Positions 2,850 to 12,330 of a stretch of DNA of 43,521 nt are shown piece after piece. The translations under genes were made by a program, and so were the position numbers. Within the stretch, counting starts at the first letter, position 1; each line of letters opens with the position of its first letter. The DNA is from a virus (taxonomy: Duplodnaviria; Heunggongvirae; Uroviricota; Caudoviricetes), in IMG/VR virus record IMGVR_UViG_2872185964_000007. One strand, given 5' to 3'. The notes beneath the pieces were generated by a model that made no database searches, was not told where the DNA came from, and saw only the letters and a list, made by a program, of their open reading frames with translations.

Positions 2850-2931
2850 GCGGCTCTGACAACGATGTTAACCCGCGTTAAATATCCCACGTTGGCCAGC
2901 ATCTGTCTCACGGAAAGTCATACTGCCTTAC

Positions 2932-3231
2932 CCAGATGTTGTCTCAGATTCAGATTATGTCGCTCAATGCGCTGAGTGTAACGCTTGCTGATAACGTGCA
3001 GCTTTCCCTTCAGGCGTGATTCATACAGCGGCCAGCCATCCGTCATCCATACCACGACCTCAAAGGCCGACAGCAGGCTCAGAAGACGCTCCAGTGTGGC
3101 CAGAGTGCGTTCACCGAAGACGTGCGCCACAACCGTCCTCCGTATCCTGTCATACGCGTAAAACAGCCAGCGCTGACGTGATTTAGCACCGACGTAGCCC
3201 CACTGTTCGTCCATTTCAGCGCAGACAATCA
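2932..3231 (-). mobile_element. IS1-variant internal fragment (insB-like), bounded by IS2 and by the IS1111-type copy 1
   Basis: ORF 2918-3268 is InsB-like but divergent from the two canonical IS1 copies; fragment ends ...ACATCTGG at 2932-2939 (reverse complement). Confidence 0.8.
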
Positions 3232-3242
3232 TGGATTTGCCC

Positions 3243-4148
3243 CTATATTTCCAGACATCTGTTATCACTTAACCCATTACAAGCCCGCTGCCGCAGATAT
3301 TCCCGTGGCGAGCGATAACCCAGCGCACTATGCGGATGCCATTCGTTATAATGCTCGAACGCCTCTGCAAGGTTCTTTGCTGCCGTTACCCCGTCTGGTT
3401 TGGGCATGATACTGATGTAGTCACGCTTTATCGTTTTCACGAAGCTCTCTGCTATTCCGTTACTCTCCGGACTCCGCACCGCCGTGTTCTTCGGTTCAAG
3501 TCCCAACATCCGGGCGAACTGGCGTGTTTCATTAGCCCGGTAGCATGAACCATTATCCGTCAGCCACTCCACTGGAGACGACGGAAGATCGTTGCCGAAG
3601 CGGCGTTCCACCGCACCCAGCATGACGTCCTGTACTGTTTCACTGTTGAAGCCGCCGGTAGTCACCGCCCAGTGCAGTGCCTCACGATAACAGCAGTCCA
3701 GCGCGAACGTGACACGCAGTCTCTCTCCGTTATCACAGCAGAACTCGAACCCGTCAGAGCACCATCGCTGATTGCTTTCTTTCACGGCCACTCTGCCTGT
3801 ATGTGCCCGTTTCGATGGCGGTACAGCAGGTTTTCGCTCAAGCAACAGCGCATTCTGGCGCATGATCCGGTAAACACGTTTGGCATTGATCGCAGGCATA
3901 CCATCAAGTTCTGCCTGTCTGCGAAGCAGCGCCCATACCCGACGATAACCATACGTGGGCAGCTCTCCGATAACATGGTGTATACGGAGAAGCACATCCG
4001 TATCATCAGTGTGACGACTGCGGCGGCCATCCATCCAGTCATCGGTTCGTCTGAGAATGACGTGCAACTGCGCACGCGACACCCGGAGACAACGGCTGAC
4101 TAAGCTTACTCCCCATCCCCGGGCAATAAGGGCGCGTGCGCTATCCAC
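3243..4148 (-). CDS. insD: IS2 transposase OrfB (InsD)
   Basis: 301-aa ORF matching IS2 InsD as recalled. Confidence 0.9.
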
Positions 4149-4467
4149 TTTTTTGCCCGTCCATATTCAACGGCTTCTTTGAGGAGTTCATTTTCCATCG
4201 TTTTCTTGCCGAGCAGGCGCTGGAGTTCTTTAATCTGCTTCATGGCGGCAGCAAGTTCAGAGGCAGGAACAACCTGTTCTCCGGCGGCCACAGCAGTAAG
4301 ACTTCCTTCCTGGTATTGCTTACGCCAGAGAAATAACTGGCTGCTACACCATGTTGCCGGGCAACGAGGGAGACCGTCATCCCCGGTTCAAAGCTCTGCT
4401 GAACAATTGCGATCTTTTCCTGTGTGGTACGCCGTCTGCGTTTCTCCGGCCCTAAGACATCAATCAT
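4106..4467 (-). pseudogene. insC: IS2 OrfA (InsC), frameshifted by an apparent 4-bp deletion
   Basis: InsC N-terminus ([13 protein letters not shown]...) and C-terminus (...[17 protein letters not shown]...) lie in different frames; element is 1327 bp versus the 1331 bp I recall for IS2; break near 4338-4342. Confidence 0.7.
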
Positions 4468-4558
4468 CTGTACTCCAATGACTAGTCTAAAAACTAGTAT
4501 TAAGACTATCACTTATTTAAGTGATACTGGTTGTCTGGAGATTCAGGGGGCCAGTCTA

Positions 4559-9736: not shown

Positions 9737-11329
9737 TTATTTATTGGTGAGTGCTACGTTCCATGGCAGGAGTTCGTCAACACGGTTGGAAGGCCATTCC
9801 GGCAGTACGCTCAGGATATAGCGCAGATACGCTTCCGGATCGATACCGTTCAGTCGGCAGGTGCCGATCAGCCCGTACAGTAGCGCACCACGCTCTCCAC
9901 CGTGATCGCTGCCGAAGAACATAAAGTTTTTCTTTCCGAGACAGACTGCACGAAGCGCTCTTTCCGCGGCATTATTATCCGCCTCAGCCAGACCATCATC
10001 ACTGAAGTTGCACAACGCAACCCAGTGCTTCCTGATATACCGGAACGCATCTCTCAGACGGCATTTTTTCGATAACGTGTGTTCTTTCTCCTGCATCAGC
10101 TTATACAGGGAAGTCAGTAGCGGTTTACTCTGCATTTGCCTGACCGCCAGGCGTTCAGACACCGGCAACCCGCGTATTTCGTGCTCGATGGCGTACAGCT
10201 CACCGATTAGTTTCAGGGCTTCTTCCGCTGTCGCGCTTTTGGTACTGATATATACATCGTGGACTTTGCGCCGCGCATGAGCCCAGCATCCTGCTTCCGT
10301 CAACGCGCCGCCTTCTCGTTCGGCACTGAACAGCCGATCGTAACCATTAAACGCATCTGCCTGCAGGATACCCCGGAAGGGACTAAGGTGCTGCTCCGGA
10401 TGTTTACCCTGATGGTCCGGTGAGTAGGCGAACCAGACCGCCGGAGGCTCTGGCGAACCGGCATTCCTGTCATCCCGGACATACGTCCAGATATATCCTG
10501 TTTTCGCCTTCTTCCTGCCCGGTGCCAGCACTTTTACTGGTGTGTCATCAGTGTGAACTTTGCGGCTGTTCATCACATAACGGTACAGAGCATCATTCAG
10601 CGGCGTCATTAACTGGCAGCACGCGTCAACCCAGTTGGAGAGTAATGCACGGCTCAGTTCGACACCCTGACGGGCAAAAATTTCACTCTGACGATACAGT
10701 GGCAGGTGTTCGCAGTATTTTCCCGTTAACACGCGGGCAAGTAACCCCGGGCCCGCGATACCACGCTCTATCGGACGGGATGGTGCCGGTGCTTCAACGA
10801 TGCAGTCACATTTTGTACAGGCTTTTTTTACCCGTTCTGTGCGGATCACTTTCAGAGCGCTGCTCACCAGTTCCAGTTGTTCTGCGCTGACTTCCCCCAG
10901 ATAATCCAGCTCACCGCCACACTCCGGGCAACAGCTTTCTTCTGGCTCCAGGCGATTTATTTCGCGGGGCAGATGCTCCGGTAACGGGCGACGATGACGA
11001 GACTGTCGCAACTGGCGGGGAACCTGCGGATCGTCTTCCCGCCCACTGTAACGATCACTGTCCTGTTCGCGTTGTTTCAGCAGGGCCTCAGCCTGTTCAA
11101 CTTCACGACGCAGTTTTTCAGAACGGGTACCGAACAGCATCCGGCGCAGTTTTTCTATCTGAGCCCGCAGATGTTCTATTTCCCGTTCATCTTCTTCGAT
11201 CTTTTCTTCGGCGCGGGCCAGTGCAGAGCGCAGGAAGGCCTCCGTCTCTTCAACCAGACTCAGTTGCTGGTCTTTCTGACGGAGCTGGCATTCCAGTTCT
11301 GCAATGCGAATGAGGTATTTTTGATTCAT
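9737..11329 (-). CDS. IS66-family transposase TnpC
   Basis: 530-aa ORF with coiled-coil N-terminus and CxxC zinc-finger motifs typical of IS66 TnpC. Confidence 0.85.
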   Translation of the reverse strand: MNQKYLIRIAELECQLRQKDQQLSLVEETEAFLRSALARAEEKIEEDEREIEHLRAQIEKLRRMLFGTRSEKLRREVEQAEALLKQREQDSDRYSGREDDPQVPRQLRQSRHRRPLPEHLPREINRLEPEESCCPECGGELDYLGEVSAEQLELVSSALKVIRTERVKKACTKCDCIVEAPAPSRPIERGIAGPGLLARVLTGKYCEHLPLYRQSEIFARQGVELSRALLSNWVDACCQLMTPLNDALYRYVMNSRKVHTDDTPVKVLAPGRKKAKTGYIWTYVRDDRNAGSPEPPAVWFAYSPDHQGKHPEQHLSPFRGILQADAFNGYDRLFSAEREGGALTEAGCWAHARRKVHDVYISTKSATAEEALKLIGELYAIEHEIRGLPVSERLAVRQMQSKPLLTSLYKLMQEKEHTLSKKCRLRDAFRYIRKHWVALCNFSDDGLAEADNNAAERALRAVCLGKKNFMFFGSDHGGERGALLYGLIGTCRLNGIDPEAYLRYILSVLPEWPSNRVDELLPWNVALTNK

Positions 11330-11359
11330 GGCCGTTTTTATAATCCGGCCATGACATTT

Positions 11360-11710
11360 TTACAACATTGTCAGTGCGTTAAGGCGGGATGTTTTTGGCT
11401 GACGCCAGTCCAGCTTATCGAGGAGCATTGCCAGTTGCGAGCGGGTAATGGATACCTTGCCGTCACGCACAGCAGGCCAGATAAACTGGCCTTCCTCCAG
11501 GCGTCTGGTGAACAGGCACAGACCATCAGCATCAGCCCACAGGATTTTAATCATGTCACCCCGTCGGCCACGGAAGATGAACAGGTGACCGGAGAAGGGA
11601 TTATCATTCAGCACATGCTGTACCTGTTCACCCAGCCCGTTGAAAGACTTACGCATATCGGTTATCCCAGCAACGAGCCAGATGCGGGTGCCTGACGGGA
11701 GTGAGATCAT
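11360..11710 (-). CDS. IS66-family TnpB
   Basis: 116-aa ORF; conserved position and family match. Confidence 0.8.
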   Translation of the reverse strand: MISLPSGTRIWLVAGITDMRKSFNGLGEQVQHVLNDNPFSGHLFIFRGRRGDMIKILWADADGLCLFTRRLEEGQFIWPAVRDGKVSITRSQLAMLLDKLDWRQPKTSRLNALTML

Positions 11711-12126
11711 CGTCCCCTCCCGGTCAGTTCACGGATCAACACTGTGAGCAGCTCTGGTGAAGGATTTTCCAGCGTCATGTTACCGTGACGGAACTCCACC
11801 TTGCAGGAGCTGGCACTAACTGTAGTCTGAGTAGATAAAGACGGAGTAAGAGCAGCCACCGGTTCTTTCGGCTCATCCGGCGTTATCTCCACAGGTAATA
11901 ATTCAACGCCAGTGTCAGAAGAGGTTGTTACCGGAAGACGCCGCGATATGCGCCCTTCGTTCTGCCAGAGCCTGAGCCATTTGAACAGCAGGTTATCATT
12001 GATATCGTGTTCCCGGGCAATACGGGCAACAGAGGCTCCTGGTTGTGAAGCCAGTTTAACCATTTGAAGTTTAAACTCATTTGAAAATGATCTGCGGGGT
12101 TCTGCAGATAATGCTTTCTGTTCCAT
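11707..12126 (-). CDS. IS66-family TnpA
   Basis: 139-aa ORF overlapping tnpB by 4 bp. Confidence 0.8.
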
Positions 12127-12212
12127 AACAGGTGTCCACTAGTTGAAAAGGTGGGCACCTACGTTACCAATACAGGCTTAATGGCTACATACGGCGGTCA
12201 GTTTACGCTTAC

Positions 12213-12330
12213 ACATCTGGCAAGGCTGGGACGGAAGTCACTGTCGTTCTCAAAATCGGTGGAGCTGCATGACAAGGTCATCGGGCATTATCTGAACATA
12301 AAACACTATCAGTAAGTTGGAGTCATTACC
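12213..12330 (+). mobile_element. IS1-variant 3' terminal fragment (insB C-terminus plus terminal IR)
   Basis: Begins ACATCTGGCAAGGCTGGGACGGAAG..., ends ...GTTGGAGTCATTACC; inverted relative to the fragment at 2932-3231. Confidence 0.8.

Follow-up and report, generated by a model that had tools for sequence, protein, structure and literature searches.

IS-mediated inversions are reported to be very frequent in Shigella, with 103 of 114 reconstructed inversions placed on Shigella branches and 25 parallel (PMC8072062), and IS-flanked inversions have been listed for S. sonnei lineages (PMC12795559). One of these surveys worked with 5-kb synteny blocks and the other with rearrangements >7 kb (PMC8072062, PMC12795559). 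The locus described here lies in a window of 43,521 nucleotides (the whole stretch of DNA that was analysed), and its inversion of 5.3 kb, near or below these block sizes, would probably have gone unscored there. The inversion is an ordinary IS-mediated rearrangement, which disrupts no gene and is most likely neutral in its effect. A literature search on ISSso6, the element at its ends, and on the accession numbers found no description of it.

Layout of the locus and its uninverted counterpart

The two IS1111-type copies at the locus are ISSso6, of the IS110 family, IS1111 group. Identical copies carry the RefSeq name 'IS110-like element ISSso6 family transposase', and the transposase has the domains PF01548 and PF02371 (IS110 N-terminal and Transposase_20 C-terminal; DEDD-type). 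The element has 14-bp perfect subterminal inverted repeats (TATGACTTTCCGTG, positions 5–18 from each end). Elements of this group would also have, in a non-coding end, a guide (bridge) RNA pairing with target and donor; an Rfam 15 scan of the ISSso6 region 8100–9800 gave no match. Copy B (1520 bp, 8192–9711) has an intact transposase gene, running from 8269 or 8317 to 9444. Copy A is interrupted by a 768-bp IS1 (734–1501, minus strand) with a 9-bp duplication, CGGTGAATC, at 725–733 and 1502–1510, an insertion that only the source assembly (L010) has among ten related loci. By sequence alignment its right-end part (631–733, minus strand) corresponds to element positions 1520–1418 and its main part is 1502–2926 (minus strand), of which 1502–1510 is the second copy of the IS1 duplication; outside IS1 and this second copy it comprises 631–733 and 1511–2926. 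Copy B on the plus strand and copy A on the minus strand thus have the inverted orientation of the original prediction. They are 99.9% identical, differing by one SNP at 2437 (element-strand C in copy A, T in copy B) and by a 1-bp deletion within 2544–2554 (C4 vs C5) that breaks the transposase frame of copy A.

Relative to uninverted relatives, the segment 2932–8186 (5255 bp) is inverted in the window, which matches the ~5.3 kb expected between the two copies; the structure measures ~8.3 kb in all. The uninverted order, rcnA'-ISSso6-(CP4-44 module, reversed)-IS2-IS1F5'-ACATCTGG-(ISSso6 in IS66)-ACATCTGG-IS1F3'-ruvC, occurs in at least five related assemblies, including CP026762.1, CP026814.1 and CP001063.1. 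Comparison with close relatives had been proposed beforehand as a check, and the predicted nest of an IS1 variant split by an IS66 element that holds the IS1111-type element is contiguous in L016 (CP026762.1), where IS1F(359–658)-ACATCTGG-GTAAG-ISSso6-CG-IS66 element-ACATCTGG-IS1F(651–768)-ruvC is found in one piece. Loci L005–L009 have the same layout over the stretch that each covers. By BLAST, the window aligns with L016 in three blocks (1–733 forward, 1502–9386 reversed, 8187–18195 forward) and is collinear with it except for an inversion ending within both ISSso6 copies.

Junction comparisons between the window and its relatives place the ends of the inversion within the two 1.5-kb ISSso6 copies, with 0 bases gained and 0 lost. 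Breakpoints within near-identical copies and the conservation of sequence at the junctions fit homologous recombination, and we give a probability of roughly 0.9 to the reading that homologous recombination between the inverted, near-identical 1.5-kb ISSso6 copies inverted 2932–8186. The enzyme behind the inversion is one that we infer, and its RecA dependence is presumed. The only markers for the crossover between the copies are element positions 376 and 491, one of them a homopolymer indel, and their alleles are scattered inconsistently among copies and relatives.

Orientation among relatives and the agent of the inversion

No difference separates the window from CP026872.1, and the only other assembly with its orientation is CP026866.1; this inverted layout, seen in loci L004 and L010, accounts for two of the nine relatives with a readable layout. 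Of the assemblies compared, GCA_002950295.1 (source strain) and GCA_002949955.1 are inverted, GCA_002949895.1 and GCA_002949175.1 uninverted. Orientation was taken from each assembly as deposited, in which a culture with both orientations would appear as one. By the markers within it, the segment of CP026866.1 (inverted) falls together with that of CP026867.1 (uninverted) and apart from that of the window; therefore at least two flips are needed, unless an assembly is misoriented, and the inversion seems to be a recurrent event. Several single-base differences among the window and its relatives lie in homopolymer runs, and we suspect that some of these are assembly errors, which, if real, would weaken the fine marker arguments. 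The 7.5 kb upstream of rcnA offered only 3 SNPs among the relatives, too few for a useful tree.

The apparent recurrence could be taken further, with the segment actively flip-flopping in this Shigella lineage and some flips perhaps made by an RNA-guided ISSso6 recombinase and not by RecA; flipping may then also occur in single cultures, seeded by the preference of ISSso6 for IS66-family ends. We regard this extension as unlikely. If it were true, flips by the ISSso6 enzyme would be a natural inversion of chromosomal DNA by the IS110 family.

The orientation of the window might instead be an artefact of assembly or of a mixed culture, the 5.3 kb between 1.5-kb inverted repeats having been placed arbitrarily while the layout in the strain is really the uninverted one, or both occur. 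The many 1-bp homopolymer differences in the window and several relatives do suggest an imperfect consensus, and the scarcity of the window's orientation among the readable relatives points the same way. However, CP026872.1 and CP026866.1 are separate assemblies with different marker haplotypes and agree in the inverted layout, their junctions being clean, and the structure as a whole has a length that long reads normally span. We hold an artefact to be quite improbable.

An alternative to homologous recombination is that the ISSso6 recombinase itself made the inversion by acting site-specifically at the element ends. Its protein matches the NCBIfam model NF033542, 'IS110 family RNA-guided transposase' (273.9 bits, cut-off 140), IS110-family enzymes are able to invert DNA between suitably oriented sites, and, if the parent was L006-like, the window's position-491 marker stayed with the right flank, as it could do if the crossover lay at the left end or close to it. 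The natural reaction of such an enzyme, however, would pair a left junction with a right one, leaving two ISSso6 copies that abut each other and GTAAGCG restored, products that, to judge from the layouts, are present in neither orientation. Both copies are instead single and complete with one flank exchanged, as expected from an equal crossover anywhere in the 1.5 kb of identity, and the reading frame of copy A is broken. Site-specific inversion by ISSso6 is thus a very doubtful reading.

When the whole region was compared by megablast with complete E. coli genomes, none had the full arrangement, because the relatives are deposited under Shigella; the comparison supplied element names, the ancestral CP4-44 end (E. 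coli VL40) and FDAARGOS_943. Queries with the junctions, again against E. coli, returned separate parts only and recovered the native rcnA sequence, and a look-up of an 84-aa yecD fragment had the source assembly as its sole match.

Order of the nested insertions

The two IS1F-like fragments are inverted relative to each other and carry the same octamer at their breakpoints, as originally predicted. Fragment 1 (2932–3231, minus strand) covers IS1 positions 359–658 and has ACATCTGG at 2932–2939 on the reverse strand; the 3' fragment, fragment 2 (12213–12330, plus strand), covers IS1 positions 651–768, has ACATCTGG at 12213–12220 and is followed by yebB-ruvC intergenic DNA. In IS1 coordinates they overlap by exactly 8 bases, which are ACATCTGG. 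The octamer alone is not rare (3 matches in the window vs 1.45 expected), and its weight comes from its position directly at both breakpoints. At two positions both copies differ in the same way from the standard IS1 of the window, which has GCACCTGG. Joined, the fragments give 410 nt that many E. coli genomes contain without interruption and at 100% identity, one such match being annotated 'IS1-like element IS1F family transposase', and a profile search matched PF03400 and NF033558 to the IS1F-like fragment.

Against this, it could be argued from the abundance of the octamer in the window and from the unequal identity to standard IS1 (88% for fragment 1, 96% for fragment 2) that the fragments are unrelated remnants of different IS1 copies sharing ACATCTGG by chance, but this has next to no chance of being right given the exact 8-bp overlap, the conservation of intact IS1F-like copies (higher at their ends than in their middles), the perfect identity of the join to such copies and the contiguity across the IS66/ISSso6 composite in L016, the last two of which rule out the independent elements that had been named beforehand as a refutation.

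The element that split the IS1F copy belongs to the IS66 family. Its body (9712–12212, minus strand) carries tnpC (9737–11329), tnpB (11360–11710) and tnpA (11707–12126), with matches to PF03050, PF13817, PF13007, PF13005, PF05717, PF01527 and NF033517 (448 bits), and together with GTAAG at 2927–2931 (minus strand), the outermost 5 bases of its terminal repeat that are still attached to the IS1F fragment, it makes up 2506 bp. Once ISSso6 is removed both ends read GTAAGCGT, the repeats beginning GTAAGCG. In FDAARGOS_943 the same element is intact (99.6% identity), with GTAAGCGTCAACGG as its tip and an 8-bp duplication, TTTTAGCT, on either side; in L016 the ISSso6/IS66 composite lies between two copies of ACATCTGG. 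To go by sequence identity, the element is an unnamed member of the family whose nearest named relatives are ISEc43-type (~93%). The name ISSfl3 was dropped, as RefSeq gives this copy a family name only. A 54-aa ORF across the junction of IS66 and the IS1F 3' fragment matched, in a protein look-up, only short draft contigs ending at the IS.

The remaining flanks indicate that copy A has a separate origin. The 5' part of rcnA (392–630, plus strand; match to intact rcnA, PF03824) is cut by copy A, with native sequence extending to GTAAGCG at 624–630 and a truncated product of 80 aa that occurs in 323 blocks of the index searched, and the plain rcnA::ISSso6 insertion is still present in two relatives, L011 and L012. 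Copy A is a hybrid whose right flank comes from this simple insertion and not from an IS66 end. ISSso6 in the IS1F/IS66 nest did enter an IS66 end; copy A did not start in one. On the other side, the CP4-44-like island module (4559–8186, plus strand) comprises DUF932 and antirestriction genes (both frameshifted), radC/yeeS, yeeT, cbeA, cbtA, yeeW and the island end, followed by GTAAG at 8187–8191 (plus strand), the tip of an IS66-family terminal repeat that is identical in VL40. The native island end in VL40 reads yeeW...GGATTAAA-GTAAG-ISSso6-CG-IS66 remnant, and on this comparison the junction that joins yeeW to ISSso6 copy B is ancestral to the CP4-44 island. IS2 (3232–4558, minus strand) has no 5-bp duplication (flanks AATCA and GCAAG) and is therefore a recombinant or rearranged copy. 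It had been thought impossible to order precisely; its junctions are identical in relatives of both orientations, so IS2 predates the inversion.

The history that we propose begins with an IS1F-like IS1 between yebB and ruvC, into which, at IS1 positions 651–658, the IS66-family element transposed, duplicating ACATCTGG. ISSso6 then entered the tnpC-side repeat of that element between GTAAG and CG; rcnA and the end of the CP4-44 island had ISSso6 copies of their own. Exchanges among ISSso6 copies and among IS2 copies, as junction comparisons suggest, would have preceded the inversion and brought rcnA'-ISSso6 (reverse) beside the CP4-44 module in reversed orientation, followed by IS2 and the IS1F nest, giving the uninverted arrangement. 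Finally, a crossover within the two ISSso6 copies flipped the 5.3 kb and parted the IS1F halves and the ACATCTGG copies. As reciprocal junctions, this history predicts rcnA3'-ISSso6-IS66 remnant-yoeF and IS1F(1–358)-IS2 in the source genome. The sequence and the relatives show the first three steps and the final inversion; that the uninverted state was itself derived through earlier ISSso6 x ISSso6 and IS2 events we infer. This agrees with the predicted order of IS66 into the IS1 variant, IS1111-type element into the IS66 end and then inversion, with which the intact IS66 copy with GTAAGCGTCAACGG and its 8-bp duplication is consistent. We reject an origin in one step from a gene order like that of K-12, since with three ISSso6 flanks to explain (rcnA, CP4-44 end, IS1F/IS66) no fewer than two ISSso6 exchanges and one IS2 event are required.

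Target preference and comparison with known systems

In all loci examined the left flank of ISSso6 is (G/A)TAAG, and the right flank is usually CG, with TG or CC in two of the nine copies of one comparison. Its sites include both kinds of IS66-family repeat (tnpA-side and tnpC-side), entered between GTAAG and CG within GTAAG/CGT(A/C)AAC, and chromosomal look-alikes such as that in rcnA, which shows a discrepancy of one base. Insertion is site- and orientation-specific and leaves no long target duplication. Our literature search found no paper on a preference of ISSso6 for IS66 repeats, which ISfinder may record. The IS1111-group elements IS4321 and IS5075 target the 38-bp terminal repeats of Tn21-family transposons, and ISSso6 likewise inserts into another mobile element, in whose terminal repeat its position and its orientation are fixed; as in other IS1111-group elements, an IS110-family DEDD transposase is combined with subterminal inverted repeats. 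Unlike IS4321 and IS5075, whose target is a Tn3-family repeat, ISSso6 uses an IS66-family repeat as well as chromosomal look-alikes. The homing of ISSso6 to IS66-family ends is a possible natural target set for studies of guide-RNA specificity in the IS1111 group.

The inversion alters no gene and raises no new biological question. The locus serves as a clean worked example of nested IS from which a succession of events can be read and of the reshuffling of Shigella-type chromosomes by inverted IS copies, with the 'before' and 'after' states both kept in sequenced relatives. It is also an 8-kb region whose orientation varies among near-identical strains and which may confuse assembly comparison and synteny-based typing.

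Like the IS-mediated inversions described in Shigella, this one has near-identical inverted IS copies at its breakpoints, involves no loss of sequence and is polymorphic from strain to strain. Unlike those surveyed, it is small, lies wholly in mobile and island DNA, and has ISSso6 as its repeats in place of the abundant IS1, IS600 or IS4. With phase-variation switches such as fimS and the shufflons it shares the occurrence of both orientations among close relatives and, apparently, more than one flip. In contrast to these switches, the segment is without a dedicated invertase and short specific sites, entire IS copies serve as its repeats, and its orientation alters the output of no promoter or coding sequence. 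The segment behaves as a product of accidental homologous recombination and not as a switch.

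Layout of the window and of related loci

Elements of the window were mapped by direct reading and a repeat scan, with each boundary checked by script, and their families are confirmed by Pfam and NCBIfam matches. From the left, rcnR (1-273, minus strand) is followed by the 5' part of rcnA (392-630, plus) and by copy A of an IS110-family element (631-733 and 1511-2926, minus), which RefSeq names ISSso6 on identical copies. Copy A is interrupted by an IS1 (734-1501, minus) with the 9-bp duplication CGGTGAATC at 725-733 and 1502-1510. Next come GTAAG (2927-2931, minus), IS1-type fragment 1 (2932-3231, minus), an IS2 without 5-bp duplication (3232-4558, minus), a CP4-44-like module (DUF932, antirestriction, radC/yeeS, yeeT, cbeA, cbtA and yeeW; 4559-8186, plus), GTAAG (8187-8191, plus) and ISSso6 copy B (8192-9711, plus). 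The body of an IS66-family element (tnpC, tnpB, tnpA; 9712-12212, minus), for which RefSeq gives only the family name (closest named relatives ISEc43-type, ~93%), precedes IS1-type fragment 2 (12213-12330, plus), and from 12331 onward lie the yebB-ruvC spacer and then ruvC, yebC, nudB and aspS.

Relatives were gathered from NCBI assemblies by exact-protein look-up. The 80-aa truncated RcnA returned ten loci, near-identical over 7.5 kb upstream (at most two SNPs per pair). Three layouts occur among them, and one contig stops at the ISSso6 left end, too early to be assigned to any (L013, with three similar places). L011 and L012 carry a simple insertion, rcnA5'-ISSso6-rcnA3'. The uninverted layout is found in L005, L006 (with seven similar places not shown), L007, L008 (CP001063.1, Shigella boydii CDC 3083-94) and L009 (CP026867.1); there rcnA5' is followed by ISSso6 (reverse), yeeW to DUF932 reversed, IS2, an IS1F fragment, ACATCTGG, GTAAG, ISSso6 (forward) and the IS66 element. 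The window layout, with the segment inverted, is found in L004 (CP026866.1) and L010 (CP026872.1), the latter 100% identical to the window. A window gene fragment of 84 aa matched no assembly but that of L010, which identifies L010 as the source. Look-up of the 104-aa IS1F-fragment product led to L016 (CP026762.1), which spans the whole uninverted structure: at 10294 and 14328, ACATCTGG directly borders the ISSso6/IS66 composite on either side, with the 3' end of IS1F and then ruvC beyond it. Aligned to L016, the window falls into three blocks (1-733 forward, 1502-9386 reversed, 8187-18195 forward): it carries an inversion that begins in one ISSso6 copy and ends in the other. The original prediction was of just such an inversion between IS1111-type copies, and the uninverted layout that it foresaw in close relatives is whole in L016 and present in L005-L009.

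The window also differs from relatives by private or patchily shared small deletions (2544-2554, 4336, 4950, 5476); the copy A transposase, DUF932 and the antirestriction gene are each broken by a 1-bp deletion and IS2 has a 4-bp CTGG deletion. These deletions lie mostly in homopolymer runs and may be either genuine pseudogenisation or errors in the consensus. Within 16415-18459 an isochorismatase-family gene is interrupted by another IS110-family element, whose 398-aa transposase gene lies at 16890-18086; L016 has the same insertion. A second copy of the IS66-family element, inverted relative to that at 9712-12212, starts at 42037 and runs past the window end (42037-43521); the ~30 kb that separates the two copies, with ruvC-aspS, an IS1 and prophage tail genes, could likewise serve as a substrate for inversion.

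The split IS1F-like element and ISSso6 target sites

The octamer ACATCTGG lies at both breakpoints (2932-2939, reverse strand; 12213-12220). The octamer by itself is unremarkable, with three matches in the window against 1.45 expected. Aligned to the window's standard IS1, fragments 1 and 2 cover positions 359-658 and 651-768, so that they overlap by exactly the eight octamer bases, and both octamer copies depart at the same two positions from GCACCTGG, which is how the standard IS1 reads. When the fragments are joined so that the octamer occurs once, the resulting 410 nt are present without interruption, at 100% identity, in many E. coli genomes; one match is annotated as IS1F family. Taken together, the exact overlap, shared differences and perfect join show the two pieces to be, as predicted, halves of one IS1F-like element, parted at an 8-bp duplication.

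In E. coli FDAARGOS_943 the same IS66-family element (99.6% identical, without ISSso6) lies between nimR and nimT, with ends GTAAGCGTCAACGG... and ...CGCTTAC, flanked by the 8-bp duplication TTTTAGCT. The element thus makes 8-bp duplications, which, with the octamers flanking the composite in L016, bears out the proposed insertion of IS66 into the IS1 variant. These intact ends also identify GTAAG (8187-8191) and CG (9712-9713) as the two sides of the tnpC-side terminal repeat, which ISSso6 has split. In L022 (3850-3880), from another assembly of the group, a different IS66-family element with ISSso6 in its end sits inside an IS1F-like copy at another IS1F position (left flank ...GAGCGACATAATC), so IS66-family elements have struck IS1F copies more than once.

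ISSso6 is 1520 bp long with a 14-bp subterminal inverted repeat. Its flanks were compared in the window (8187-8191/9712-9713, 624-631, 2927-2931) and at NCBI loci L001, L002 and L020-L029. Every copy examined sits in a single orientation with (G/A)TAAG to its left, and nearly all have CG to the right, with TG or CC in two of nine in one set. Occupied sites include both terminal-repeat kinds of the window's IS66 element, a terminal repeat (CGTACAGCCTGAACCG...) belonging to a different IS66-family element, and several chromosomal look-alikes, rcnA among them. These flanks, including the GTAAG and CG sides of the IS66 terminal repeat, make the description of an IS1111-type element in an IS66 end correct. 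At rcnA the native sequence on the opposite strand is GTAAAGCG; the occupied site, GTAAG-ISSso6-CG, has one A fewer (comparing window 624-631, L003 925-940 and the ISSso6 left flank in L011 and L012), which may reflect the way ISSso6 inserts, mutation after the insertion or an error in a homopolymer. ISSso6 copies in relatives are themselves insertion targets, with an IS3-family element at ISSso6 position ~1195 in L005 (10567-11817) and another IS66-family element (GTAAGCGTGCAGC...) at position 1496 in L008 (18526). We found no paper on an ISSso6 preference for IS66-family ends, and this homing is the sole mildly new side result.

Direction, probable recurrence and mechanism of the inversion

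Because a target duplication arises on contiguous target, and the octamers directly flank the composite in the uninverted layout, that layout must be the original at the IS1F/IS66 locus and the window layout derived. Within the 5255-bp segment (2932-8186), four SNPs (3100, 3354, 5122, 6210) are common to L004, which is inverted, and L009, which is uninverted, and are missing from the window and L005-L008. In the IS66 body, L004 and L009 have a 1-bp indel in common as well. Each haplotype thus occurs in each orientation, which would take at least two inversion events, and the segment has probably been inverted more than once. The alternative to recurrence is that one assembly is misoriented or one culture was mixed.

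Copies A and B are 99.9% identical across 1.5 kb. Their two differences are a synonymous SNP (copy A has C at 2437, copy B has T at 8682) and a 1-bp indel in a run of C (8567-8571 in copy B). In both layouts each ISSso6 copy is single and complete, just one flank switches partner, and not a base is gained or lost at the junctions. This is what an equal crossover between the copies would leave, and we read the inversion as homologous recombination. If the ISSso6 enzyme had instead joined the left junction of one copy to the right junction of the other by site-specific recombination, the outcome would, by our reasoning, be two abutting ISSso6 copies and a repaired GTAAGCG, products absent from both layouts. 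The position-491 allele is scattered among ISSso6 copies and strains, leaving the crossover point not placeable, and suggests repeated exchange between ISSso6 copies.

Probable earlier exchanges and comparison with Shigella

To its right copy A borders rcnA just as the simple insertion does in L011 and L012, and to its left IS1F/IS66; the left flank of copy B is CP4-44. E. coli VL40 has yeeW...GGATTAAA-GTAAG-ISSso6-CG, followed by a ~150-bp IS66 remnant, yoeF and yeeX, and by this comparison the CP4-44 flank is ancestral. The uninverted layout links rcnA5' to the CP4-44 end via ISSso6 and, via the duplication-less IS2, IS1F position 359 to the region upstream of DUF932. Such pre-existing joins point to earlier ISSso6 x ISSso6 and IS2 x IS2 exchanges, which would have built the uninverted layout. 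The proposed order (IS66, IS1111-type element, inversion) fits the data, with these exchanges added as an inferred refinement. The IS2 and IS1 hits had been considered impossible to order precisely, which holds for IS1 only: IS2 junctions are identical in both layouts, so IS2 predates the 5.3-kb inversion, and the order of the IS1 insertion in copy A (among the ten loci, in L010 only) and L010's own inversion cannot be fixed.

The rcnR-rcnA, CP4-44 and ruvC-aspS blocks are adjacent in the window (1-630, 4559-8186, 12331 onward). On the K-12 map they are roughly 110-130 kb from one another; the window keeps their K-12 orientation with the order reversed, which points to several larger IS-mediated rearrangements in the lineage.

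The observation is confirmed, and its earlier interpretation supported with refinements. We found no account of the 5.3-kb ISSso6 inversion in the literature. In Shigella, no rearrangement is commoner than inversion mediated by IS elements (PMC8072062; PMC12795559), and beside such cases the present one is a small, gene-neutral example.
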